A program made the translations under genes and the position numbers. From an uncultured Bdellovibrionales bacterium (GTDB taxonomy: Bacteria; Patescibacteriota; Minisyncoccia; Moranbacterales; UBA1568), in contig CAYNMD010000003.1 of assembly GCA_964398485.1 (NCBI GenBank), positions 1,334 to 65,333 on the forward strand: a stretch of DNA of 64,000 nucleotides. The letters run 5' to 3'. A model generated the notes under the pieces. It had not been told where the DNA came from and did no database searches. It worked only from the letters and a program-made list of their open reading frames with translations. This document shows positions 5,352-62,203 of this stretch, in pieces. How positions within the stretch are numbered: position 1 is the stretch's first letter; each line of letters begins with the position of its first letter.

Positions 5352-6138
5352 AACCAAGTTTTTTATTTTTAGTGACGAGTCAGGAAGCTGGCATGATCCA
5401 GCAGATATTTACGTTAGGTCATGGGTCGTAATAACAAGTGAAGAATATAACAAGCTGCTGGCCAAGGTTGATGAAATTGCTAGTTTTATCGGATCAAAAG
5501 AACTATCGTGGAATACTTTAGCAGGCAACAAGAACCTCTTTCACTCATTTGATGGGATTAGTTTTAGGATTTTTATTACGGTCTCTTGTCCAAAAGATAT
5601 TTCATGGGGTACGAAATATCGGCTGACGAAAAATTTTGAAACGAGTATATTAGGTTTTGATTTTGGTGAGCTGGATGAAGGTTTAAGGGCATACATTAAA
5701 GATAGGATTTATAAAGATATAAAGAATGCATTATTTTTAAACTTCTATGAAAGGTATCATATTGAAAATGCAAAAAAGGGGATTGAACGCGTTATCAAAC
5801 CAACTGATTATGATTTGATATATCGTATTGATCCTCCACAGATGCCCCAAGAAGGATGGAAGAATATACTACAGAAAGTTGATAACTCTTCTTCAATTAA
5901 TATAGAATTTCCAAAATCAAGCCGGACACAAGGGATACAATTTGCAGATGTGGTTGCTGGTTGTTTCCGATCCTTGCTTTTAAAGGGTAGAAAGTTTGAA
6001 GAGTCAAAAGAGTTTTTAAAAGTTATTAAAGATCGCATTATACAGAAGAATAAGGAGAACCCAAATCCAAATCTAATATTTTTTGGAGAAATGAACAACG
6101 ATATAAAGTTAAACTGTGCAGATATCTGGAAGTACTGA
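5341..6138 (+). CDS. DUF3800-family protein embedded in hsd operon
   Basis: N-terminal FIFSDESGSW (DES motif) and C-terminal IQFADVVAGC (QxAD motif) typical of DUF3800; GGAGG RBS 9 nt upstream; overlaps previous gene by 11 nt. Confidence 0.5.
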   Translation: MENRTKFFIFSDESGSWHDPADIYVRSWVVITSEEYNKLLAKVDEIASFIGSKELSWNTLAGNKNLFHSFDGISFRIFITVSCPKDISWGTKYRLTKNFETSILGFDFGELDEGLRAYIKDRIYKDIKNALFLNFYERYHIENAKKGIERVIKPTDYDLIYRIDPPQMPQEGWKNILQKVDNSSSINIEFPKSSRTQGIQFADVVAGCFRSLLLKGRKFEESKEFLKVIKDRIIQKNKENPNPNLIFFGEMNNDIKLNCADIWKY

Positions 6139-6142
6139 ATTT

Positions 6143-7324
6143 ATGAACTACCCAACAAAAAAACTTGGAGAGGTTTGTGGAGTTGTTGGTGGGGGGACGC
6201 CATCGACAAAAGTTAGTGAATATTGGGGCAACAAATACCATTGGGTAACACCGAAGGACTTGGGCCAGTTGAAGAGTGTAGAGATTTCCCAGACCAATAA
6301 ACAAATTACCGATAGTGGATTAAGGGACTCTTCGGCAAAACTGCTTCCCGCTGGATCTGTTATCCTCTCATCTCGTGCCCCTATTGGATATGTTGCAATT
6401 AATACTGTGCCAATGGCTACGAATCAAGGATGTCGCAGTTTCGTATGTGGGCCGAAAGTTTTTAATAAGTATCTGTATTACTTTTTGATCGCCTCCCATG
6501 ACTATCTTCAAACATTGGGAGGCGGCTCAACTTTTCTTGAAGTTTCCGGATCACGTCTGAAAGAGATTGAAATCCGGGTTCCGCCTATTAGGGAGCAGGG
6601 GAAGATTGTTGCGAAGATAGAACGGCAATTTGCCAAGATGGACGAGGCCGCGCGGTTGCGCGCGGAGAGTGAGGCTCTTGCCGAAAAACTCCTCCCCGCC
6701 GCCCTCCACGAAATCTTCTCCTCACACAATTGGGATTTGGTCTCTCTCAGTGATGTGGTTACGAGTTTTCAATACGGTAGTTCAAAAAAAGCCTCTGATA
6801 TTGGTGAGGTTGTGTGTGTAAGAATGGGTAACTTACAGAGCGGTGAAATCGATTGGACAAATCTGAAATATGCTCCAGATAATGAAGAATTAGAGAAATT
6901 TTTTCTACGTGATGGTGATGTATTATTTAACCGTACCAACAGTCCTGAGCTTGTGGGCAAGACCGCAATTTATCGGGGTGATAGGCCCGCCATATTTGCT
7001 GGTTATTTGATTCGTATAAACTACGTACGGGATAAAGTGCTAGGACAATATTTAAACTATTGTCTTAATTCTGATTTTGCAAAAGACTTCTGTCAGAGAG
7101 TTAAAACGGATGGAGTAAGTCAGTCTAATATTAATGCGCAGAAGCTTGCAACATTTACCTTCCCACTTCCACCGCTTACAGAACAAAAGAAGATTGTGAA
7201 AAAGTTGGATGCTCTCGCTGAAAAGGTGAAGGCCCTCCGCGAGCTGCAGGCAGCTCAAGCAGCCGATCTCAAAGCCCTCAAGCAATCCATCCTCCATCAG
7301 GCATTCAGTGGAGATGGGAAGTAG
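6143..7324 (+). CDS. hsdS: type I RM specificity subunit (HsdS)
   Basis: Two target-recognition-domain halves separated by conserved coiled-coil repeats (LPPLTEQKKIVKKLDAL...; central AKMDEAARLRAESEALAEKLL); ATG at 6143 verified, 4 nt after DUF3800 stop. Confidence 0.85.
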   Translation: MNYPTKKLGEVCGVVGGGTPSTKVSEYWGNKYHWVTPKDLGQLKSVEISQTNKQITDSGLRDSSAKLLPAGSVILSSRAPIGYVAINTVPMATNQGCRSFVCGPKVFNKYLYYFLIASHDYLQTLGGGSTFLEVSGSRLKEIEIRVPPIREQGKIVAKIERQFAKMDEAARLRAESEALAEKLLPAALHEIFSSHNWDLVSLSDVVTSFQYGSSKKASDIGEVVCVRMGNLQSGEIDWTNLKYAPDNEELEKFFLRDGDVLFNRTNSPELVGKTAIYRGDRPAIFAGYLIRINYVRDKVLGQYLNYCLNSDFAKDFCQRVKTDGVSQSNINAQKLATFTFPLPPLTEQKKIVKKLDALAEKVKALRELQAAQAADLKALKQSILHQAFSGDGK

Positions 7325-8565: not shown

Positions 8566-9000
8566 ATGGCCAGAGTCAGTACCTATCTCAATTTTACTAA
8601 TCAAACAGAGCAGGCTTTCCATTTTTATCAAGAAGTGTTTGGGACACAATTGGTTGGCGAAGTGGCTCGTTTTGGAGACATACCACCTGCTGAGGGTATG
8701 CCGCCGCTTTCTGAGGAAGACAAACAGTTAGTCATGCATATGGAGCTCCCGATACTCGGTGGACATGTGCTTATGGGTACCGATGCTCCGGCTTCGATGG
8801 GCTTTGCGGTACAGCAGGGTAATGCTACTCACATCAATCTTGAACCAGATGCTCTAGAGGAAGCGAAGCGCTTGTTTGATGCGCTTTCTCAAGGGGGGAA
8901 AGTGGATATGCCTCTCCAAAAAATGTTTTGGGGTGCTCACTTTGCATCCTTTACGGATCGTTTTGGCGTGCACTGGATGATAAACTGTGCGGGAGCGTAG
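8566..9000 (+). CDS. VOC-family (glyoxalase/PhnB-like) protein
   Basis: YLNFTNQTEQAFHFYQEVFG...MHMELPILGGHVLMGTD...MFWGAHFASFTDRFGVHWMIN typical PhnB-like VOC fold. Confidence 0.55.
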   Translation: MARVSTYLNFTNQTEQAFHFYQEVFGTQLVGEVARFGDIPPAEGMPPLSEEDKQLVMHMELPILGGHVLMGTDAPASMGFAVQQGNATHINLEPDALEEAKRLFDALSQGGKVDMPLQKMFWGAHFASFTDRFGVHWMINCAGA

Positions 9001-9008
9001 GGAAGAGT

Positions 9009-9284
9009 ATGGGCGCGCTGCATCGAGTCCCTCAGGATCTCAAAGCAATTCTCGATAGTCAGTCTGATGTACGAAAGCAGTGGGAGAGTCTCACTCCACT
9101 TGCGCGGAATGAGTGGGTTTGTTATGTCACCATCGTCAAGAAACCTGAAACGAGAGCGAGCCATCTCCAAAGACTCGTGAGTGATCTCCGTGGTGGTAAA
9201 CGTCGTCCCTGCTGTTGGCCAGGCTGCCCACATCGTCGGCCCGAGGCTGCCAAATGGTTTGGTAAAAGAATGGCTAAAGTATAG
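9009..9284 (+). CDS. YdeI/OmpD-associated family protein
   Basis: PQDLKAILDSQSDVRKQWESLTPLARNEWVCYV pattern; ATG at 9009 chosen because the longer ORF overlaps previous gene. Confidence 0.4.
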   Translation: MGALHRVPQDLKAILDSQSDVRKQWESLTPLARNEWVCYVTIVKKPETRASHLQRLVSDLRGGKRRPCCWPGCPHRRPEAAKWFGKRMAKV

Positions 9285-52808: not shown

Positions 52809-54743
52809 ATGGCAAAAATTCTTGGTATCGACCTCGGAACCACCAACTCGGCAATGTCAATTGTCGAAGGTGGGAGTCCATCGGTCATTGAAAACAAGGA
52901 GGGGAATCGCACCACTCCATCGATGGTAGCGATCAGTAAAACGGGGGAGCGTCTCGTGGGACTCCTTGCCAAGCGGCAAGCCGTCACCAATCCCGAGAAC
53001 ACTCTCTTCTCAGTCAAGCGCCTCATCGGTCGCCGTTTTGAGGACGACGAAGTGCAGCGTGACATGAAGACTCTTCCCTACAAAGTGATCAAGGCCGAGC
53101 ATGGCGTCAAAGTTGTGATGGGTGGCAAGGAATACAGTCCACAGGAAATCTCGGCTATGGTCCTCCAAAAGCTCAAGAGTGATGCCGAAGAAAAGCTTGG
53201 TGAGAAAATTACCGACGCCGTGATTACGGTCCCAGCGTATTTCGATGATGCCCAGCGCAAAGCTACCAAAGAAGCTGGGGAAATTGCTGGTCTCAATGTC
53301 CGTCGTATCATCAATGAACCAACTGCCGCCGCGCTCGCCTATGGCTTCAACAAGAAGAAAGACGAGAAGATCGCCGTCTATGACCTCGGTGGTGGTACGT
53401 TTGATATCTCTATCCTCGAAGTATCCGAAGATACCGTCGAAGTGAAATCAACCAATGGCGATACCCATCTTGGTGGTGATGACTTTGATCAGAAAATCAT
53501 TCACTGGATCTTGGATGAGTTCAAGAAACAAGAAGGACTCGACCTCTCAAAGGATCCACTCGCTCTCCAGCGTATCAAGGAGTCAGCTGAAAAGGCCAAG
53601 ATCGAGCTTTCGACTGCCATGGAGACCGAAATCAATCAGCCATTTATTACGAGTGGTGCCGATGGTCCCAAGCACCTCGTCATGAAACTCACCCGCGCCA
53701 AACTCGAAGAGCTCGTCCATGAGCTCGTGCAGGGGACGCTCGAACCAGTGAAGAAAGCCCTCGCCGATGCCAAGCTCAGCGCCAGTGACATCAATGAAGT
53801 AGTCATGGTGGGTGGTATGACCCGAATGCCCTTGGTTCTCGCGACCGTGGAGAAATTCTTTGGGAAGAAACCCAATATCTCGGTGAATCCGGATGAAGTC
53901 GTCGCTGTCGGTGCCGCTATCCAGGGAGGAGTCTTGGAGGGATCGGTCAAAGACGTGCTCCTTCTCGATGTGACTCCACTGACCTTTGGGATCGAGACTC
54001 TTGGTGGCGTACGGACACCCCTCATCGAGCGCAACACCACTATTCCTGCGAGCCGCTCTCAGGTTTTCTCGACGGCTGCCGACAATCAGCCGCAGGTCGA
54101 GATCCACGTGCTCCAGGGTGAGCGTGAAATGGCTGCCGATAACAAGTCTCTCGGCCGTTTTGTCCTCGATGGTATCCCACCAGCGCCTCGTGGCATCCCA
54201 CAGATCGAAGTCTCCTTTGATATCGATGCTAGTGGCATCCTCTCGGTCACGGCCAAAGACAAAGCTAGTGGCAAAACCCAGTCGATCCGTATCGAAAGCT
54301 CGACCGGTCTCTCCAAAGAAGAAGTGGAACGCATGAAAAAAGATGCCGAGCTCCACGCCGAGGAAGATAAGCGCAAGAAAGAGTTGATCGAGGCTCGCAA
54401 TATGGCCGATACGCTTGCCTACAGTACCGAAAAGGCTATGCGTGATGCCGGAGACAAAATTACGGCCGATGAGAAGAAACCAGTCGAAGAAGCCATCACC
54501 GCGCTCAACGCTGTGAAGAATGGTGATGACCTGGAGGCTATCAAGAAAGCGACTGAAAATCTCTCACAGGCCGCTCAGAAAATTGGTGAGAAACTCTACA
54601 GGGCTGCCCAAGAAGCCCAGGCTGCTCAGACAGGAGCTACTGGTGCTGATACTCCCAAGGCAGATGAGGAAAATGCTCCAAAGGACGCGGAAGTGGAGGA
54701 GAAGCCAAAGGATGAGGGTGCCAGTGAACAACCGAAACAGTAA
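52809..54743 (+). CDS. dnaK: molecular chaperone DnaK
   Basis: [19 protein letters not shown], full Hsp70 NBD+SBD. Confidence 0.95.
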
Positions 54744-54748
54744 TGACC

Positions 54749-54778
54749 AAGCGGGGCCTGAGTGCCCCGCTTTGATTA
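54749..54778 (+). terminator. rho-independent terminator after dnaK
   Basis: AAGCGGGGC-ctgagt-GCCCCGCTT then TGATT. Confidence 0.6.
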
Positions 54779-54792
54779 GAATAAAAATAAAT

Positions 54793-55392
54793 ATGTCGCA
54801 AGTTGATCCGTATTATTGGTTTGTCCAGGGGCGTCAATATTTGATCGCTGCTGAGACATTATTAGATCGAATAATAAAAAATGGAAATCAATTATCTTAT
54901 GTTGGCAAACCATTGAAAGATAAGGCCATTGAGAAAAGACTAGATAGTAATGATGCTTATTTATTTTTTCCATTGATGCTGTTGTTCTACCACGGTATTG
55001 AGCTATTCTTAAAAGCACTGTACATAATCGAAAATGGTAAAAGATACAAAAATGATCACGAAATTACCTCAATTTTAAATGCAGTAGACAAGAATACGGA
55101 TTTCAAGGTAATTGTTGATGAGGTTAAAAAATATACTTATTTCCTAGACAAAAATTTCCCAGAGTTTCATCAATGGTTAACTCTCAATAAATTTACGATC
55201 GATTCCTTCTACTTGTTTCTAAGGTATCCATCTACCACGATAGGTAAACGTCCGGGAATTGAAATTTTTCAAATCGAAGTACTGGGTCTAGAAACTAAAA
55301 CATTACCCCATTATCGTAAATTAAGAGCCGCAATTAGAAGCATTATCAAAGGTGGAGTAATAGTACTTCGTAAACATAAAGGTGTTAAATAA
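54793..55392 (+). CDS. hypothetical protein, strongly AT-rich ORF (possible HEPN-like Rx4H motif)
   Basis: 199 aa, about 30% GC versus about 46% host; GKRYKNDHEITSIL contains R-x4-H; ATG at 54793 just after dnaK terminator. Confidence 0.4.
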   Translation: MSQVDPYYWFVQGRQYLIAAETLLDRIIKNGNQLSYVGKPLKDKAIEKRLDSNDAYLFFPLMLLFYHGIELFLKALYIIENGKRYKNDHEITSILNAVDKNTDFKVIVDEVKKYTYFLDKNFPEFHQWLTLNKFTIDSFYLFLRYPSTTIGKRPGIEIFQIEVLGLETKTLPHYRKLRAAIRSIIKGGVIVLRKHKGVK

Positions 55393-55465
55393 ACATGGTT
55401 TTATGTCTCAACAAATCTTCATCATCTACATCACCCACTTTAGTCTGGCTGAAGCCAAGCGGGGG

Positions 55466-55510
55466 TAAAAAATTCAAACGGCGACACCTAGGTGGGGTCG
55501 CCGCTTTGTT
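55466..55510 (-). terminator. repeat hairpin copy 1 (minus-strand terminator of 55533..56177)
   Basis: + strand AAAAAATTCAAACGGCGACACC-taggt-GGGGTCGCCG; on minus strand reads hairpin then TTTGAATTTTTT. Confidence 0.55.
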
Positions 55511-55532
55511 TGCTGGCTGTTGCCAGATTGGA

Positions 55533-56177
55533 TCAGGCGCGGCGATAGCGTCGCGTCTGGATGGGCGCTTCCGAGAAGTTGCGCTCGAAGAAGTTGGTGA
55601 GCCAGGTGGCGATCATGAAGCCGCCGATGAAGGAGAAGGCGACTGCCGCCAAGAGGAGGAACAGGATGAAGATTCGTCCATCACGACTCTCGGAGAGCGT
55701 TTCACTCACGAACTCACCCACTTCGCTGGCGGCTTTGCCGGTGTGTTGGATGGCACCCCAGGTGTTGTGGAGCTGTGCTCCCACGTTGTACACCGCCGAA
55801 CCGACCGAAGCGAAGTCGCGCCGCTCGAACGCAGCCTTGACCGAGTGAATGGTGATGGCCAATCCTGTTCCGAGCAGGGGAATGATGATTGCCACGTACC
55901 AGAGATCGAAGATAGCCTTCATGAACTGCTTGGCTTCTTCGGGTGTCAGTTTCGGCTCTTCACCAGTCGTGAGCCAGGCAGTGGCCAGAAACGCGAACAG
56001 GATGAGGAGCGGCATCGAAAAGCCGATACCAGCCTGGAACTTGGCGCTCCAGAGAACGAAACGGAGGAAGGCACCACCCTGAGCTCGCACCACTTGGCGC
56101 GACACGCCCACCACATAGCAGTTCCAGGTCGCGATCGCGATGTTGAGAGCGAGCAGGAAGAAAACCAATGCGCTCAT
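55533..56177 (-). CDS. polytopic membrane protein (cassette gene 1, GC-rich)
   Basis: 214 aa, 5-6 TM helices; AAGGTGA RBS 7 nt upstream of ATG; flanked by the repeat promoter module and repeat terminator. Confidence 0.45.
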   Translation of the reverse strand: MSALVFFLLALNIAIATWNCYVVGVSRQVVRAQGGAFLRFVLWSAKFQAGIGFSMPLLILFAFLATAWLTTGEEPKLTPEEAKQFMKAIFDLWYVAIIIPLLGTGLAITIHSVKAAFERRDFASVGSAVYNVGAQLHNTWGAIQHTGKAASEVGEFVSETLSESRDGRIFILFLLLAAVAFSFIGGFMIATWLTNFFERNFSEAPIQTRRYRRA

Positions 56178-56240
56178 AGATCGGTCACCTTTGCAAAGGA
56201 CTCGATACGGATGCAGCCGATCCTGGTTGGAGAAAATCTA

Positions 56241-56290
56241 CCAACGAGATATTAAAGCATTTTATCGGATAAAAATCAAGGGTGTATAAT
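56241..56290. repeat. promoter module copy 1 (bidirectional)
   Basis: CCAACGAGATATTAAAGCATTTTATCGGATAAAAATCAAGG shared with 57540..57582; minus-strand reading gives TTGATT-17-TTTAAT; plus strand has TGTATAAT extended -10 (56283-56290) before DUF3467 gene. Confidence 0.5.
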
Positions 56291-56322
56291 AAGCAGTATA
56301 ATGAGTAAAGAAAATTCGTTGT

Positions 56323-56619
56323 ATGACTCAACCACAAACAAATCAAATTCAAATCAAGGCGAGTGATGACAAGGTAAAGGGGGAGTATGCCAACATGATG
56401 CAGGTGATGCACACCCAAGAAGAATTTGTCGTTGATTTCCTCAATGTGTTTCCGCCAGCAGGGACTCTCAACGCTCGTGTTATCGTCAGTCCTGGCCATA
56501 TGAAGCGCATCGTGGCAGCACTCGCGGACAATCTCGCTAAGTATGAAAAGCAATTCGGAGCGGTGAAGCCCAGTGATGCTCCTACTCAGAACCCCATCGG
56601 TTTTACAGATAGGGGGTAG
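56323..56619 (+). CDS. DUF3467 family protein
   Basis: 98 aa; GEYANMMQVMHTQEEFVVDFLNVFPP...ARVIVSPGHMKRIVAALADNLAKYEKQFG pattern of DUF3467. Confidence 0.45.
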   Translation: MTQPQTNQIQIKASDDKVKGEYANMMQVMHTQEEFVVDFLNVFPPAGTLNARVIVSPGHMKRIVAALADNLAKYEKQFGAVKPSDAPTQNPIGFTDRG

Positions 56620-56825
56620 TATCTATGTTGACAGAAATTTAATTTAATGATATTTTTTTGGTGCCCTCGGCTCATCAAGAGCTTAGCGTCATGAAAGGTG
56701 GGGGATGGTTGGTTGCATACGCTAGTGACCCAAAACCGCAATAGAGAGTTGGACGTCTCTATTGGCTATCGTCTAACGGAATAGCTCGGTCTCCATGTGG
56801 GACGCGGGCTTTTCATTTTTTTGGT

Positions 56826-56870
56826 CTATAAATTCAAACGGCGACCTTGTGGTGGGGTCGCCGCTTTGTT
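56826..56870 (-). terminator. repeat hairpin copy 2 (minus-strand terminator of 56890..57486)
   Basis: ATAAATTCAAACGGCGACC-ttgtggt-GGGGTCGCCG, same element as copies 1 and 3. Confidence 0.55.
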
Positions 56871-56889
56871 TCCGGTGTTCCGGATGGGG

Positions 56890-57486
56890 TCAATCAAAGG
56901 TGCTGTCGGGTCCTGTAGCGGCAGTCTCGATGGCACCTCCGCCGGAGTCTCCGCTGCGGGCAACGGGTTCGGCCAGAGTATCAGCCGACGCTGCGCTCTG
57001 CTGCGGTCGTGCGTAGCAGGCGGCTCCAGAGTCTTGTGGTTTGATGGGCTCGCCCGTAGCGTCAACAGCATCAGCTTTCGGGTCGCAGGGACGACCATCT
57101 GTCTCCAAACTCTCGGGACGAATCGCGTCACGGATGACCTCGACGACCACTGCGCCAGCCTGGACCACATCGGCGATGTCATCGAGATCAATGTCGACCT
57201 CATCACCGTTAGGCTGGACGGAGGGAGCGGCACGCCGTTCCGATTGTGGGTGGAGTTGGCGAGTCGACGTTGGTCTGGAGGTCGCTTGGGCAGACGGTCG
57301 CCCAAATGGGTACTGGATCTCTTCGGCAGTCAGTTCCCTGATACCAGTTGACCGAGCACGCCGAGCGAGCCGCTGCCGCTCTTCCTCTGCTTCCTGCTTG
57401 CTCTTGCGGCGCGACCAGAGCAGGCCAACGATGGCGAACAGCAGAATGACACAGCCTAAAGCCCACAACAGGGTTTCGATGGACAT
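56890..57486 (-). CDS. N-terminally TM-anchored protein (cassette gene 2, GC-rich)
   Basis: 198 aa; TM LLWALGCVILLFAIVGLLW then charged/acidic Ala/Pro-rich domain; AGGAGA RBS 5 nt upstream. Confidence 0.4.
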   Translation of the reverse strand: MSIETLLWALGCVILLFAIVGLLWSRRKSKQEAEEERQRLARRARSTGIRELTAEEIQYPFGRPSAQATSRPTSTRQLHPQSERRAAPSVQPNGDEVDIDLDDIADVVQAGAVVVEVIRDAIRPESLETDGRPCDPKADAVDATGEPIKPQDSGAACYARPQQSAASADTLAEPVARSGDSGGGAIETAATGPDSTFD

Positions 57487-57539
57487 GGGTTCTCCTGAAA
57501 GGTGCTGTTTCTCAGCTTTTTGAGCTGGCTGGTGAGCAA

Positions 57540-57598
57540 TTCACCAACAGAGTATTAAAGCATTTTATCGGATAAAAATCAATGGCTACTGTATAACT
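57540..57598. repeat. promoter module copy 2
   Basis: CCAACAGAGTATTAAAGCATTTTATCGGATAAAAATCAATGG (about 90% identical to copy 1), followed by TGTATAAC. Confidence 0.5.
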
Positions 57599-57619
57599 TA
57601 AAAAATCTAAAATTAAGTA

Positions 57620-57660
57620 TAAAAAAATTCAAACGGCGACACCTGGGTAGGGTCGCCGTC
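57620..57660 (-). terminator. repeat hairpin copy 3 (minus-strand terminator of 57715..57954)
   Basis: AAAAAATTCAAACGGCGACACC-tgggt-AGGGTCGCCG. Confidence 0.55.
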
Positions 57661-57714
57661 GTAGTTGTGGCTGCTGCCAAATTTGAAGCCCTGACGCAAT
57701 GGTAGCGTGACCAT

Positions 57715-57954
57715 CTACCATGGATCATCCTTGGATGGACAAACAATTTGAGTAGAGGCGAAGTCGCCAACGTCCTGGCCTATCCATTCGGGTGGACAGG
57801 GTGTCCATTGGCCATCGTCAGCATCGAAGACATCACCCCGCTTGACCGTCTCTGGTGATCGGCGAAGTTTCCCGTAACACCAGTTGTGATCATTTCTAGA
57901 GTGAGTGTGAAACTCATCACTTGTTTGGGAATTTCCCCTAAAAGGAAATGACAT
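57715..57954 (-). CDS. small Cys-containing protein (cassette gene 3)
   Basis: 79 aa; GGGAGA RBS 6 nt upstream; own TTGACA-17-TAAATA promoter (rc of about 58011-58045). Confidence 0.35.
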   Translation of the reverse strand: MSFPFRGNSQTSDEFHTHSRNDHNWCYGKLRRSPETVKRGDVFDADDGQWTPCPPEWIGQDVGDFASTQIVCPSKDDPW

Positions 57955-58447
57955 GCTGATCTCCCGTGATCAGATCTTCAACAAGGGACCCCTTGCTGAT
58001 TGCTGGTATATTTACAGGCTTTGAGCGTAAATGTCAACGAAACTTCCCTTTACAAGCGCTCTTTTTGTGCTAGGCTAGAGCCGGATCAAGGCGCCAAGGG
58101 GGCGTAGTACACTGCTCAGTCCGATCCGTTTTTTCGTTCGTTTCGTGTTTTTCTTTACGTGTACTTGAGCAAAGACCCGTCATCTCATGTGGCGGGGAGC
58201 GGGGCAGTAGCGCCCTGCATTCGTGTTTCCTTGTGGCGATCCCCGGCGGATCTGGCATCGACGCCTGTCGAGCCTGCCCTCCGACGGGGCGACGGGGACC
58301 CGGCTGTCCAATGAAAGCCACCCCCACGCAGCCCGGGTTCCGTGCGACCTGTTGCAGCTTTTGGCTGCGAGCCTGACCGACGGTGAGCCCCCTTGGCCAA
58401 CGTACGGAAATTTGGTTCTTTTCAACTCATTCTCTCGGGAGTATGCC
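57955..58447 (+). ncRNA. GC-rich structured non-coding region upstream of RT (candidate retron msr-msd or DRT-type ncRNA)
   Basis: About 490 nt without credible ORF (only overlapping GC-frame ORFs), multiple hairpins (CGGATC...GATCCG + T-run at 58095-58160; GCAGC-tttt-GCTGC at 58365-58380; GGGACCCGG...CCCGGGTTCC), ends at RT RBS. Confidence 0.35.
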
Positions 58448-59530
58448 ATGCTTGACATGATACTGCACCCGAGAACAATCGCGGTGCTCTGTGGTGGCTG
58501 GCCCACTATCGAATTTCACGAGAAGCTTGTCCGTGGGAAAAAACGGCTAATCGGCTCACCCAATCGAGCGATGAAAAGGCTCCACGAGCTCTTTGGCCAA
58601 TACCTCAAGCAAGCTATCAGCGCGACCAGAAGCGATGGCTATGGGGTGCGCAAGCTTCCTTCATCATTTGGTTGTGTACCGGGTTCGAACCCGATGAAAA
58701 ATGCCAACGAGCATGCCAAAGGTCAGTGGTGCTTCTATATCACTGACCTTTTTGACGCTTATGGCCACGTTTCGCTAGAGCGACTGGCACGTTTAGTGAC
58801 CTTCATCCTTCGTTATGAGGACTACGCTGATGAGGTTTCGCTTGGCTGGTTTGGTCTCGATGATCGCACAGAGTATCTGACACGTGACTCCGCGTATGCG
58901 CCTACGCTAAGTTTTCTGCGGGCTCACTTTGCTGGGCAATACGGAAGAGGATTGGCTATTGGGGGACCGCTATCGCCGTACCTCATGAACCTCTACTGCG
59001 AAGTGTTTGTTGACATGCCGCTCCGCAAACTCTGCGAACGACGTGAAATTACCTACACTCGCTATGTTGATGACCTGGTTTTTTCGGCCAATCAGTTCAT
59101 TGGAAGAGAGACAAGAAGGAGAATTCGGGCCATCATTGAGCGTGGCGGCTTTAGCGTCAATCACAAGAAGTCGTGGGTGAGACTCCACTCAATGGGTCAG
59201 GCGAGCGTGACCAAGTGGGGTATCGAACGCCAAGCTAACGATGGGCGGGTACTACGTATCACCTACCCTCAGCGCAAGCGGCGACTCCTCCACGGCATCA
59301 TCCACAGTTATCTCACCCAACAAATGGACTGGCCGGAAAAGGTAAGTGGCTGCGTAGCAGAGTTCCTCTACTACTACAAACAAGCGGAGCGGAGCGGGAT
59401 GCTCACTGCTACCGACCACAAGACAATGGAGCTGTGCCTACAGTTCAAGACTGAGTGGGACAAGTACGGTGGGCCCAAGTACCAATTGGGTCGACGCTAT
59501 CAGGCAAAACTTCGTGCGAGAAAGCGCTGA
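58448..59530 (+). CDS. reverse transcriptase (retron/DRT-type, RT domain only)
   Basis: RT motifs: ITDLFDAY (motif A), GLAIGGPLSPYLMNLY (QGxxxSP-type motif B'), YTRYVDDLVFS (YxDD motif C), VNHKKS (motif D/E); NANEH resembles retron NAxxH; 361 aa, no maturase/endonuclease domain; ATG at 58448 with GGGAG RBS. Confidence 0.8.
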   Translation: MLDMILHPRTIAVLCGGWPTIEFHEKLVRGKKRLIGSPNRAMKRLHELFGQYLKQAISATRSDGYGVRKLPSSFGCVPGSNPMKNANEHAKGQWCFYITDLFDAYGHVSLERLARLVTFILRYEDYADEVSLGWFGLDDRTEYLTRDSAYAPTLSFLRAHFAGQYGRGLAIGGPLSPYLMNLYCEVFVDMPLRKLCERREITYTRYVDDLVFSANQFIGRETRRRIRAIIERGGFSVNHKKSWVRLHSMGQASVTKWGIERQANDGRVLRITYPQRKRRLLHGIIHSYLTQQMDWPEKVSGCVAEFLYYYKQAERSGMLTATDHKTMELCLQFKTEWDKYGGPKYQLGRRYQAKLRARKR

Positions 59531-59647
59531 GATAGAGACAATGGTCTTACTCGGCGCTTGTTTTTTATTTGAAATCAATGCCACAGAAGCCATAGCCAAG
59601 AAGAGGAGAAAAGGGTAGGATGGAGGTGAACGTATACTCTTTATCCT

Positions 59648-60613
59648 ATGCTCGAAAAACTCAAGAACATCTTCTATCGACCAGACTTTTTTCGAAGACA
59701 AGAATTTACTACTGGTCAGGCGCTCTCATTTTATTCCCTCTCCGTTTTCTTTCTCGTTCTTGGTCTTTCACTGATCCTTATCCCAGCCGCCTGGGGGATA
59801 AACCGTTTTTTTGAGTCAGCCCAGTGGCAAGAACAAAAGCAAATTATCGAGACACTCTATCCAGCTGGTCTCGTGCTTACTTTGGAACATGGCAAACTGA
59901 CTACCAATCAAGCTGCCCCCGTTGTTATTCCCTTTCCCAAGGAATGGGTAAAAAATGGTGCCTGCAACAAAAAGAAACATTGTGAACAGCGCGAACTTCC
60001 AGTGAATCTCTTGGTGATAGATAAAAGTGCTGAGCTCTCTCGCAAAGCTATCGAGTCTCGTGATACCCTCGTTCTCGCAAGTGAAACCGAAATTGGCATG
60101 AGCAACCCTCGTCGAGGTGAAACCAGAATATTTAGTACGGCTGAATTCAACTTTGATCAAAAGATTGTCGTAAATAAGGACTCCTTCGTTTACTGGATAA
60201 ATCGAGGAGCGAGTATAGTTCAAACAGCTATCCTTTTTCTCCTTGCTGTGCTCCCACTCATCATGTTTGTGGTGCTTTGGGTAGGGTACATCATGTACAG
60301 TCTCTTGGGCGCACTCGTGGTATGGCTCGCTGCTCATATCAGAAATCACCGGCTTACGTATGGGCGGGCATATCTTTCGACACTCTATTTGCTCCCAGCC
60401 TCATTTCTTATGATGGTGGTTATGTCAGCAATGAGTTATCGTATCCCGCTTCTCTTTACGATTATTCTCTTTGGTATGGCGCTCCTCAATTTTGACCGGC
60501 GGGCCAAGGAAAAAGTTCTTCCAGGGCCATTTACTGATACTCATGCAGCTGTAATCCAAGAGGCCCCAACCACTCCTGCACGACCAACTTCTGAGAATAA
60601 AGAGATCTCATAG
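59648..60613 (+). CDS. polytopic membrane protein (DUF1189-like), host-like composition
   Basis: 321 aa; N-terminal TM, about 150-aa soluble segment, then four TM helices; AT-rich like host. Confidence 0.4.
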   Translation: MLEKLKNIFYRPDFFRRQEFTTGQALSFYSLSVFFLVLGLSLILIPAAWGINRFFESAQWQEQKQIIETLYPAGLVLTLEHGKLTTNQAAPVVIPFPKEWVKNGACNKKKHCEQRELPVNLLVIDKSAELSRKAIESRDTLVLASETEIGMSNPRRGETRIFSTAEFNFDQKIVVNKDSFVYWINRGASIVQTAILFLLAVLPLIMFVVLWVGYIMYSLLGALVVWLAAHIRNHRLTYGRAYLSTLYLLPASFLMMVVMSAMSYRIPLLFTIILFGMALLNFDRRAKEKVLPGPFTDTHAAVIQEAPTTPARPTSENKEIS

Positions 60614-60639
60614 CAAGTAATACGTTTAATAACATTGTT

Positions 60640-60804
60640 ATGGACAAAGTGAAAGTAGAAAATCATAGTTTTACAGCGTTCTCATGGTGCGCAGGTTGGC
60701 TCTTCACGGTCGGTTTTCTTGGTCTTTCTTTTTGGAAGGGAGTCTTGGCTATCGCTATCTGGCCATACTATATCGGGGAATACGTAAGTAGTCTCATAAG
60801 ATAG
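60640..60804 (+). CDS. possible 54-aa small membrane protein
   Basis: ATG ORF MDKVKVENHSFTAFSWCAGWLFTVGFLGLSFWKGVLAIAIWPYYIGEYVSSLIR, below track cutoff. Confidence 0.2.
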   Translation: MDKVKVENHSFTAFSWCAGWLFTVGFLGLSFWKGVLAIAIWPYYIGEYVSSLIR

Positions 60805-60829
60805 GAAAATAAAACCGTTTATACCCAAA

Positions 60830-61261
60830 ATGGATCGTATGGCTGAACTGAAGACCAAGGTAAATAACAAAAGTCCATTGGCTTTTATCAAGACTATTGC
60901 TAATGAAGAGAAACGTAAGGATGCAGAGCAGTTACTCAGGATTTTTACTGAAGTAACTGGAGAGAAACCAAGGATGTGGGGTGAGAGTATTATTGGCTAC
61001 GGGCAATATCACTACGAATCAGAACGAAGCAGTCAAAAGGGCGATTGGCCACTGACTGGTTTCTCGCCACGCAAAGCAGCATTGACGATATATATCATGC
61101 CTGGTTTTGAGGCCTACGCTGATCTCATGAAGGATCTCGGCGCATGTAAGACGAGTCGATCTTGCCTCTACGTAAAACATCTCTCTGATCTTCATATCCC
61201 TACGCTCAAAAAACTCATCAAATGCTCCGTGACTGATATGCGCCGTAAATATAACGCCTGA
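60830..61261 (+). CDS. DUF1801 (YdhG-like) domain protein
   Basis: FIKTIANEEKRKDAEQLLRIFTEVTGEKPRMWGESIIGYGQYHY typical DUF1801. Confidence 0.5.
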   Translation: MDRMAELKTKVNNKSPLAFIKTIANEEKRKDAEQLLRIFTEVTGEKPRMWGESIIGYGQYHYESERSSQKGDWPLTGFSPRKAALTIYIMPGFEAYADLMKDLGACKTSRSCLYVKHLSDLHIPTLKKLIKCSVTDMRRKYNA

Positions 61262-61342
61262 TGTTTGCAGGTGACTTTGTTGACGCAGTTTCTTTTTTCG
61301 TATACAACAGCAGTATCATAGCTATCTCTTGGAGAGGGACCT

Positions 61343-61714
61343 ATGTCCAAGTCGCTTTTATTGGCTTGTCTCGTGGCAGCTATCGCGCTCGCCACTTGCA
61401 GCGGAAAGAAGGCTCACTCACAGGCAAGATCAATTCCGACCGTTCCGGACTATGAGATCAAAGCGGTCGAAGCCGCCTGTGAACATGGGGGGACAGTACT
61501 CCATTTCCTTCTTCGAGAAACTGAGGGGGAGAAACAGCCGATCACCAAGAAGATGTACTGCATCGATAAACAAGGGCGGCGGGTGCTCCGTATCGAATGC
61601 AGTCACCAACGCTCTCGCTGCGAAACGCCAGTGGTGACCGAGGATTCAGTCGAGGGATTCAGACAGCTCCTTCGTGTTATGGAGGGCAATCCCAACACTG
61701 GTATCGATACCTGA
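61343..61714 (+). CDS. lipoprotein, hypothetical (GC-rich)
   Basis: Signal peptide with lipobox LATC (MSKSLLLACLVAAIALATCSG). Confidence 0.4.
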   Translation: MSKSLLLACLVAAIALATCSGKKAHSQARSIPTVPDYEIKAVEAACEHGGTVLHFLLRETEGEKQPITKKMYCIDKQGRRVLRIECSHQRSRCETPVVTEDSVEGFRQLLRVMEGNPNTGIDT

Positions 61715-61843
61715 GTTATGTTCAATCCTGGGCCACGTCCACATGTCTGGAGGTGGCCCAAGCTTTTTATAAAAAGAAGGCCCACCGACCGGTCTCAGTC
61801 AGGTGGGTTCCTTATTTGGCCAAGTTTGGCCGTTGCACTGTTC

Positions 61844-62203
61844 TCAGGTAGCAGCGTTCACATCAGCGGGCGTGAGCTGAATACTTCCATCCGGATGCAG
61901 CAGGACGAGATAGCTCGGCCGCTCCTTATTGGCATCGAGATCAGGCCGATTTGGCACTCTCAAACGAGGAAAGATGTCCAGATGACCACCCGAAGCAGTG
62001 GGGTAGAACTGTCCTTCAGCATGAGTGACGTACCGCACGCCATCCTGCGTCACCCACTTGAGACGAAGACTGTCTCCATCACGATCCTTGATGTCTTCAG
62101 TGATGATGGCATCGTTCGCCGGTACCCGGCAATCGAAACACTGTCTCAGAGCCAAGGCAAAGGCATTGCGAGCCAGCTGGGCAACTTCTTGAGAAAATGA
62201 CAT
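61844..62203 (-). CDS. hypothetical protein (GC-rich)
   Basis: 119 aa minus-strand ORF, no family recognised. Confidence 0.3.
   Translation of the reverse strand: MSFSQEVAQLARNAFALALRQCFDCRVPANDAIITEDIKDRDGDSLRLKWVTQDGVRYVTHAEGQFYPTASGGHLDIFPRLRVPNRPDLDANKERPSYLVLLHPDGSIQLTPADVNAAT

Follow-up and report, generated by a model that had tools for sequence, protein, structure and literature searches.

A reverse transcriptase gene with a conserved RNA upstream

The locus described here, 57955-59530, lies in a 64,000-nt stretch of DNA, called the window below (positions 1,334 to 65,333 of contig CAYNMD010000003.1, assembly GCA_964398485.1, placed in Patescibacteriota by GTDB). It carries a gene for a reverse transcriptase (RT) and, directly upstream on the same strand, a structured non-coding RNA (ncRNA). 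The initial annotation had proposed an RT-ncRNA unit of the retron or DRT2/DRT9 type at this place. Positions are those of the window unless a related locus is named. The related loci L001-L004, L082-L089 and L169-L175 were obtained from exact-protein look-ups and scans.

The open reading frame (ORF) 58448..59530 (+) encodes an intact RT of 360 aa; the RT domain had been called complete before, with a length of 361 aa for the protein. RVT_1 was matched at E=5.8e-14 and was the sole Pfam domain. The RT motifs read earlier were all found: YITDLFDAY (motif A), GLAIGGPLSPYLMNL (motif B'), the intact catalytic YVDD, and NANEH within KNANEH. Alignment of 40 homologues showed no variation at the catalytic aspartates D100, D208 and D209, nor at N81, N85 and H89 in the segment SNPxKNAxxH. 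The AlphaFold (AF2) model of the 360 aa (mean pLDDT 90, pTM 0.84) showed no additional domain, in agreement with the stand-alone RT proposed initially; about 90 residues follow RT7, and there is no long C-terminal alpha-repeat domain. Homologue N-termini begin at ATG 58448, and a GGGAG Shine-Dalgarno sequence lies at 58437-58441. Both indicate that the 360-aa reading is correct, and an in-frame GTG at 58223 was rejected as start codon on these grounds.

Between the RT gene and a minus-strand ORF ending at 57954 lies a gap of 493 nt (57955..58447). The ORFs within it are unconserved and of the kind expected of GC-rich DNA. Most related loci likewise have a gene-free gap before the RT, of ~450-1100 nt; it is shorter in L173 and in the P0108 locus, where upstream ORFs were called. 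When 57955-58460 was folded as a single sequence, z was about -0.95 for either strand, a value that does not set it apart from shuffled sequence. The "several strong hairpins" on which the initial annotation had relied are therefore no evidence in themselves, and all claims on RNA structure made here rest on covariation only. The upstream region is 80% identical in nucleotides to that of L083 over 410 nt, with compensatory changes, the two RTs being 74% identical as proteins. It is also recognisably similar to that of L082, whose RT is ~62-65% identical.

The features of the locus are as follows.

58049..58076 (+): predicted ncRNA promoter, with -35 TTTACA at 58049-58054, a 16-nt spacer and the extended -10 TGCTAGGCT at 58068-58076
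58082..58400 (+): structured ncRNA of ~320 nt; 5' end placed from the promoter, 3' end at least at a2
58083..58087 (+): PK 5' strand GGAUC, pairing with 58123-58127
58089..58092 (+): X 5' strand AGGC, pairing with 58371-58374
58093..58103 (+): a1, the 5' strand of P1, GCCAAGGGGGC, a perfect 11-bp inverted repeat with 58387-58397
58104..58109 (+): 5' bulge GUAGUA, with G58104 as candidate priming (branching) G, a role taken from the analogy with retrons
58110..58121 (+): B (P1b) 5' strand CACUGCUCAGUC, pairing with 58375-58385
58123..58127 (+): PK 3' strand GAUCC, part of the covariation set of 13 loci
58128..58175 (+): C-poor linker of variable length, U-rich here, with GUAG-like repeats in other members
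58176..58225 (+): conserved core in reduced form, with P2 58176-58183/58189-58196 and P4 58199-58205/58212-58218, then AUUCGUG
58226..58370 (+): variable GC-rich 3' domain with several hairpins, candidate template (msd-like) by inference
58371..58374 (+): X 3' strand GCCU, pairing with 58089-58092
58375..58385 (+): B (P1b) 3' strand GACCGACGGUG, pairing with 58110-58121
58387..58397 (+): a2, the 3' strand of P1, GCCCCCUUGGC, pairing with a1
58415..58426 (+): conserved GUUCUUUUCAAC element between a2 and the Shine-Dalgarno sequence
58437..58441 (+): Shine-Dalgarno GGGAG, before ATG 58448
58448..59530 (+): retron-like RT, from the ORF, RVT_1, retron profile matches, the family alignment and the AF2 model

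Covariation of the RNA helices

The terminal helix strands of 13 loci with full RNA were curated by hand. The register was chosen manually, so that the partner shuffles used as control address covariation and not register. The a1/a2 inverted repeat was present in 13 of 13 loci, with varying sequence and preserved pairing. It encloses 268-375 nt in the window and the eight loci scanned (the other loci are similar), and a2 ends 26-60 nt before the ATG in the family loci. Examples of the P1 arms are given below.

Window: 5' GCCAAGGGGGC, 3' GCCCCCTTGGC
L085: 5' GCCAGGAAGAA, 3' TTCTTCCTGGC
L088: 5' GCCGGGAAGC, 3' GCTTCCCGGC
L174: 5' GCTGGGGAGC, 3' GCTCCCCAGC

For P1 (a1:a2), all 137 pairs were canonical, 8 of 11 columns covaried, and 0 of 2000 partner shuffles reached the observed value. 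Helix B, which follows a 5' bulge of 5-13 nt, also covaries: its five P1-proximal pairs were canonical in 60 of 60 cases in 12 loci (0/2000 shuffles reached the observed value), and compensatory changes were seen in L082 with RNAalifold. Helix X joins RGGNN just 5' of a1 to NNCCY just 5' of the B 3' strand. Here 57 of 59 pairs were canonical and columns 1, 4 and 5 covaried (0/2000 shuffles). Helix PK (GGAUC:GAUCC) was canonical at 65/65 pairs in the 13 loci, with one double change, GGAUU:AAUCC in L171. Of the unpaired bases that follow a1, the first is a G in 11 loci, and in the other two the G is second. The initial annotation had proposed a search for flanking a1/a2 repeats, a branching G and covariation among homologues; the repeats were located at 58093-58103/58387-58397, the G at 58104, and covariation was found in the terminal helices as well as in the core. 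A nested outward extension of P1, through pairing of an "AAGG" after a2, was also considered and was rejected as inconsistent between loci, whereas the crossing helix X covaries.

The core was described by a covariance model of 95 positions (P2/P3/P4), which scored 54-86 bits in its 10 training loci. In these loci 93% of the cells were paired, against 79% in shuffles and 43-65% with slid partners, and 12 of 18 pairs showed a compensatory change. The model misses the window, L083 and L082 because their core has no hairpin P3. No match was obtained in 76 loci of other retron-like RTs, indicating that the RNA and the RT form a specific pair. The MAFFT alignment of whole RNAs was unreliable in the 3' half. 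The 3' domain is poorly conserved in sequence across the family, yet rich in hairpins, and between the window and L083 the hairpins were kept by compensatory changes (for example GCAGC/GCUGC to GUAGUC/GACUAC). The RNA can be assigned to the plus strand, since its conserved U-G pairs would turn into A-C mismatches if the minus strand were read.

The promoter is likewise a family trait. GGATC is preceded, at a distance of 6-7 nt, by the end of an extended -10 (TGnTAnnnT) in 11 of the 13 family loci; a near-match at the same spacing was read by eye in the remaining two. The -35 TTTACA is conserved in the window, L083, L082, L084, L171 and L174. From the promoter position the RNA would start at ~58082, with GGAUC at its extreme 5' end. 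The RNA thus covers ~58082-58400 (+), with 63% GC over 58083-58397, and 57955-58081 is intergenic DNA and promoter. The claim that a co-oriented structured ncRNA precedes the RT is borne out by covariation in 13 loci; its supposed extent of ~490 nt is not, as the RNA takes up about two thirds of that. A search of Rfam 15 at permissive E-values, over 54500-62000 of the window and eight related loci, returned nothing on the RNA. Taken together, these comparisons establish, at the level of sequence, the existence of the RNA, its strand, promoter and helices, and its co-inheritance with the RT.

X and PK cross P1 and B: the X 5' strand abuts the outer end of P1 and the X 3' strand abuts the inner end of B. 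With this geometry the four helices cannot share one nested fold. One possibility is a compact pseudoknotted core in which P1, similar in length to B, is folded back onto it. Alternatively, the X/PK and P1/B pairings could alternate in time, or X and PK could join separate molecules head to tail.

Several smaller observations concern the RNA. In helix P2 one pair (alignment columns 14/66) alternates between U-G in seven loci and C-A in three, an isosteric wobble exchange suggesting that this pair may be functionally important. A UUCUUUUCAA-like block and GGAG were found between a2 and the ATG in family loci. The U-rich, GUUCUUUUCAAC-like block (58415-58426; same place in family loci) joins no predicted helix and could be a pause, processing or ribosome standby site. 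In L171 (378-414, and also in L172) the single-stranded linker holds a perfect tandem repeat, (ACGTAGCAA) x 4.1; looser GUAG/GCAG repeats occupy the linker position in L084, L002, L001 and L089, and the P1 bulge (GUAGUA, GCAGU, GCUGU) resembles this motif. An 18-nt hairpin at 57956-57973 (CTGATCACGGGAGATCAG on the minus strand), not conserved in L083 or L082, adjoins the start of the 79-aa minus-strand ORF and lies outside the RNA.

In the more distant locus L005 (Candidatus Saccharimonadia), the RT (5950-6924) is 27% identical. A perfect 12-bp inverted repeat, GGGTGGTCTGGA / TCCAGACCACCC, at 5626-5976 encloses 327 nt directly upstream of it. The family core motifs are absent from L005, and the core model gave no match there. 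A large RNA bounded by a1/a2 may be a feature of a wider RT clade of the Candidate Phyla Radiation (CPR, Patescibacteria).

The RT is most closely related to retron RTs

The RT was compared with curated models of RT families. With PADLOC, all of the best 25 of 59 matches were models of retron RTs (3.5e-21 to 4.9e-12, with scores up to 74 bits), and models of group II intron RTs, DRT2, Drt3a and DRT9/UG28 were absent among these best 25. The top model, RT_II-A, reached 74 bits over a partial alignment only; the RT_Ec107-like model matched at 8.8e-16. The best retron model of NCBIfam was retron_St85 (3.9e-19, 69 bits vs a cut-off of 235). The group II intron RT model TIGR04416 gave 4e-8 (32.7 bits vs 300), Drt2 NF041746 gave 6e-7 (28.9 bits vs 390), and Drt3a scored 20.6 bits vs 200. 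When a family profile was compared with PDB sequences, the Ec78, Ec83, Ec67 and Ec86 RTs were matched at 1e-12 to 1e-10, GsI-IIC at 6e-7 and DRT2 at 2.5e-5. Foldseek with the AF2 model also placed retrons first (Eco2, Eco8, Eco7 and Ec86); together with Ec83 and Ec78 these were matched at 2e-13 to 1e-10. A group II intron RT was matched at 3e-11, DRT2 at 1.6e-9 and DRT9 at 8e-9 (TM 0.49); the DRT9 structure ranked behind every retron match.

Retron RTs carry NAxxH in region X, between RT2 and RT3, and VTG in region Y, where the G is the most conserved residue of the triplet (Mestre et al. 2020, PMC7736814). Region X of the window RT reads N85-A86-N-E-H89; in 40 sequences N85 and H89 were invariant and A86 was at least 90% conserved. 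A hidden Markov model (HMM) alignment to the Ec78 RT set the family's NAekH opposite the retron NAaaH, so that the resemblance of NANEH to NAxxH noted earlier is confirmed by position.

These results suggest that the nearest known relatives of the RT are retron RTs, by score and by fold. On the other hand, no type-specific or curated model assigned it to any of the 13 described retron types. The classification proposed initially is thus borne out as far as kinship with retrons goes, but membership of a retron type or of DRT2/DRT9 is not supported by the scores. For ten remoter relatives, taken from the search of representatives at E = 6e-56 to 1e-27, no retron type model gave more than 115 bits. 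The low scores of the RT and of these ten indicate that it belongs to a region of RT sequence which current retron types do not cover.

Group II intron RTs were the second-best matches in both structure and sequence, and diversity-generating retroelements (DGRs) dominate the RTs of CPR bacteria, making up ~80% of them (PMC8632793). That the locus is a remnant of a mobile retroelement such as a group II intron, or a DGR, is nevertheless highly improbable. TIGR04416 remained far below its cut-off, RVT_1 and the AF2 model left no maturase or endonuclease domain, and no Rfam intron match was found in the window or eight related loci. Moreover, there was no template/variable repeat pair, nor any direct repeat >22 nt in 57500-59700, and purifying selection clearly acts on the RNA and the RT together.

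A proposed retron-like module and its alternatives

The layout of the locus is that of a retron primer-template: a1/a2 repeats, a G after a1, a conserved 5' half, a variable hairpin-bearing 3' half and the RT downstream on the same strand. This layout favours a retron-like mechanism. In our judgement the chances are about even that the locus is a self-contained two-part module derived from a retroelement, made up of one promoter, a ~320-nt ncRNA and a 360-aa retron-like RT, with retron-like priming of cDNA and no dedicated effector. That the RNA is the cognate template or scaffold of the RT is likely. The transcript probably continues past a2 into the RT mRNA, and RNA and RT would then share one transcript.

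In such a module the RT would be bound to its own RNA through the 5' half, whose sequence is conserved (P2-P5, msr-like). The terminal stem a1:a2, extended by B, would bring the variable GC-rich 3' domain beside the unpaired G58104. The RNA could then serve as both primer and template, with a portion of the 3' domain being copied by the RT into single-stranded cDNA, primed most likely from the bulge G and kept in the ribonucleoprotein (RNP). The RT-RNA-cDNA particle would be the functional unit, either as an effector-less anti-phage sensor or by acting through a factor encoded elsewhere. Transcription, RT-RNA binding, G priming, cDNA synthesis and any defence role are what we infer from the analogy with retrons.

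A number of results weigh against the retron-like module. Region Y was [V/I]-T-[K/Q/R] throughout the 40 sequences, with T255 invariant and the G absent, and the HMM alignment set VTK opposite the VTG of Ec78 and Ec83. All retron type models scored far under their family cut-offs. No effector was found: the RT has no fused domain, no adjacent gene is conserved, and the neighbours in the window had no PADLOC match. With regard to the RNA, the part enclosed by P1 (~270-375 nt) is longer and, across the family, more conserved in sequence than a typical retron msr-msd. The template strand beside a2 is itself paired, in helix B, and we know of no equivalent of the crossing, covarying helices PK and X in retron ncRNAs. 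Finally, L169/L170 (2650-3000; P0014, Candidatus Moranbacteria, two assemblies) have an intact 346-aa RT with YVDD and keep the 3' part of the RNA (X 3' strand TACCT, B 3' strand, a2 GCCCCCTTGGC). GGATC, a1 and the 5' core are absent there, with no copy of a1 within 3 kb; either the module is decaying in this lineage or the RT is able to work without the full RNA. Given region Y, the type models and the lack of an effector, the module is placed outside the defined retron types.

The strongest rival is a DRT2/DRT9-like mode of action, in which the RNA would be scaffold and template for a non-retron synthesis (template jumping, rolling-circle, or repetitive or homopolymeric cDNA from the linker). 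A 2'-5' branch would not be formed, and the role of effector would fall to the cDNA or to its product. UG2/DRT2 and UG28/DRT9 are likewise effector-less modules, in which one protein gene is accompanied by an upstream ncRNA that is large and conserved and has a promoter of its own; neither RT nor ncRNA is dispensable in them, and unusually high RNA sequence conservation, as seen here, was noted for UG28 (PMC9226505). The short tandem motifs of the linker, such as those in L171, L084, L002 and L001, would fit repetitive synthesis, and the crossing X and PK, which join distant segments, could serve template repositioning or RNA-RNA oligomerisation. However, the RT is much nearer to retron RTs than to DRT2 (29 bits vs 390; 2.5e-5) or DRT9 (Foldseek 8e-9 vs 2e-13), it is not of the UG/Abi kind by score, and it has no long C-terminal alpha-repeat domain. 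A neo-like stop-free frame over the stretch from the PK 5' strand to a2 was found in only two of 13 RNAs, in antisense, and in neither orientation was such a frame family-wide (sub-regions were checked non-exhaustively). No template-flanking direct repeats were seen, the strands of X and of PK being complementary pairs, and Rfam gave no match. We regard this mode as unlikely.

A further reading departs from retrons in mechanism. The family may constitute an RT-RNA machine of a new class, confined to Patescibacteria and for the most part inherited in place, in which PK and X give a pseudoknotted core or a head-to-tail oligomeric RNP. Its product would be unlike multicopy single-stranded DNA (msDNA), for example a repetitive cDNA from the repeat-bearing linker; no effector protein would be involved, and a cellular role would be possible. 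We hold this reading as tentative, and somewhat unlikely.

The RNA might also act mainly in cis, as a leader (5' untranslated region) that controls translation or stability of the RT, for example in RT autoregulation, and might never be reverse-transcribed. It lies directly upstream in the same orientation, with no terminator found between a2 and the ATG. The U-rich block and the Shine-Dalgarno sequence after a2 are conserved, and the mutually exclusive pairings X/PK and P1/B are switch-like. On the other hand, at 320-420 nt, and with its covariation, conserved core and long terminal stem, the RNA would be a very large leader for a protein of 360 aa. A specific precedent exists for a1/a2 plus G as a primer-template, and the Shine-Dalgarno sequence and start codon lie outside every conserved helix. 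A leader function of this kind seems improbable, and the retron-like two-part module is kept as the working interpretation.

Distribution and genomic surroundings

In a search of 5.8 billion proteins, 134 relatives of the RT were found at E<=1e-5, the lowest identity among the 120 listed being ~40%. Nearly all are 340-420 aa long with RVT_1 as sole domain. The few that are named come from Candidatus Moranbacteria, Minisyncoccota and "Patescibacteria group"; one partial sequence is labelled Zixiibacteriota. Among 1.84 billion representatives, searched exhaustively and without a profile, 36 clusters (50% identity) were matched at E<1e-30, beneath which the matches shade into ordinary 300-aa retron-like RTs. 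At 90% identity the family amounts to ~130 clusters. A genome scan with the single protein gave no match. With the family alignment, four clear family members were found among the best 80 loci, the remainder being mostly ordinary retron RTs, and at least one clear family locus was found in metagenomes. Titled genome matches were Parcubacteria, Patescibacteria and Saccharibacteria. Searches of IMG/VR viral contigs (best match 27% identity) and of phage genomes yielded no member of the family. By these labels, almost all members of the RT-RNA module with a named host appear to be Patescibacteria.

All-against-all BLAST of the neighbours of 15 family loci revealed no conserved neighbour protein, only synteny at the level of lineages. 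The window and L083 share a downstream DUF1189 gene and a 54-aa ORF, and the order in L083 is HSP70 ... RT-DUF1189. BipA adjoins the RT in L084 and L171. In L088, L174 and the P0108 locus (the last from its gene table) the RT lies between RNase R and SMC; the SMC_N neighbour in three loci, a 738-aa protein in the comparison of L088 and L174, is the housekeeping SMC (TIGR02168, 485 bits). L003 and L004 share a cupin and ThrRS.

The initial annotation had described a ~4-kb island of 60% GC and had deduced probable horizontal acquisition from it. Neither statement is supported by the GC profile. Windows of 2 kb around the locus had 48-52% GC, compared with ~45% for the whole window, and local peaks (57-61%) were interleaved with troughs (31-48%). 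The RNA alone reached ~63%, as is expected of a structured RNA, and the locus is syntenic with related genomes. Together, the GC profile and the synteny argue for a module stably resident in the chromosome rather than recently acquired.

Another alternative is an RT-RNA particle that has been domesticated and is inherited vertically, serving these reduced genomes in a cellular capacity such as DNA repair or nucleic-acid metabolism rather than in defence. The module lies amid housekeeping genes (near DnaK; RNase R/SMC; BipA), its position is conserved within lineages, it was not found on viral contigs or in phage genomes, and PADLOC found no defence genes among the neighbours in the window. However, the family is small and patchy, as its cluster counts and the four clear members among the best 80 loci show, which is unexpected for an essential function; one lineage has lost half of the RNA, and positive evidence for a cellular substrate was not obtained. 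We therefore consider a domesticated particle quite unlikely, compared with the retron-like module.

Relation to known systems

The module resembles retrons in the order of ncRNA and RT on one strand, the a1/a2 repeats, the unpaired G at the end of a1, the conserved 5' and variable 3' halves, NAxxH, and the kinship of the RT in sequence and fold. It differs from them in VT[K/Q/R] for VTG, in scores under every type cut-off, in a larger RNA with strong family-wide sequence conservation, in the extra covarying helices B, X and PK (a pseudoknot or an alternative fold), in having no effector, and in its near restriction to Patescibacteria. A retron lineage without accessory genes has a precedent in clade2_Ec107like, described in a 2026 survey of retron diversity in SPIRE in which Patescibacteria are unmentioned (bioRxiv 10.64898/2026.05.14.725207).

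UG38 is a small UG/Abi group of stand-alone RTs from Parcubacteria, Nealsonbacteria and Atribacteria, found in metagenomic genomes only (PMC9226505). It shares CPR hosts and the stand-alone RT with our module, as far as a comparison by description goes. In contrast to UG38, the module RT scores with retron models and not with UG/Abi models, and by description and model scores the two are unlikely to be identical. A search of the full-text literature on Patescibacteria, CPR, Parcubacteria and Saccharibacteria with retron, RT or ncRNA returned no description of the family. On sequence grounds the module thus appears to represent an undescribed retron-like RT-ncRNA family, so far found only in Patescibacteria (almost all labelled members).

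A large part of bacterial diversity is accounted for by Patescibacteria. The known RT-ncRNA machines, namely retrons, DRT2, DRT3 and DRT9, each use a different chemistry, and a second Patescibacteria-specific RT system with a large conserved RNA would extend this set. The module is minimal, at ~1.5 kb with one protein and defined to the nucleotide, so that direct synthesis and testing in a heterologous host would be feasible. The elements a1/a2, G58104, B, X and PK provide a covariation-backed set of mutations for dissecting priming and folding. If a defined cDNA is made, the module would be a compact candidate for retron-style DNA production tools.

Additional observations

Three observations were made on neighbouring genes. 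A sharp GC trough (31-32%) was seen at 54800-55400 of the window, just downstream of dnaK and within the ORF 54520..55392, whose C-terminal part (MSQVDPYYWF...) has no assigned family; this suggests a foreign insert distinct from the RT module. The SMC genes at L088 6217-8433 and L174 4468-6693 (minus strand) encode only ~740 aa, compared with ~1180 positions in the TIGR02168 model, and their coiled coil appears much shortened. In L003, a sub-threshold match to a T-box leader (36.8 bits, E=1.3e-4) was found at 8973-9034, upstream of the threonyl-tRNA synthetase gene.

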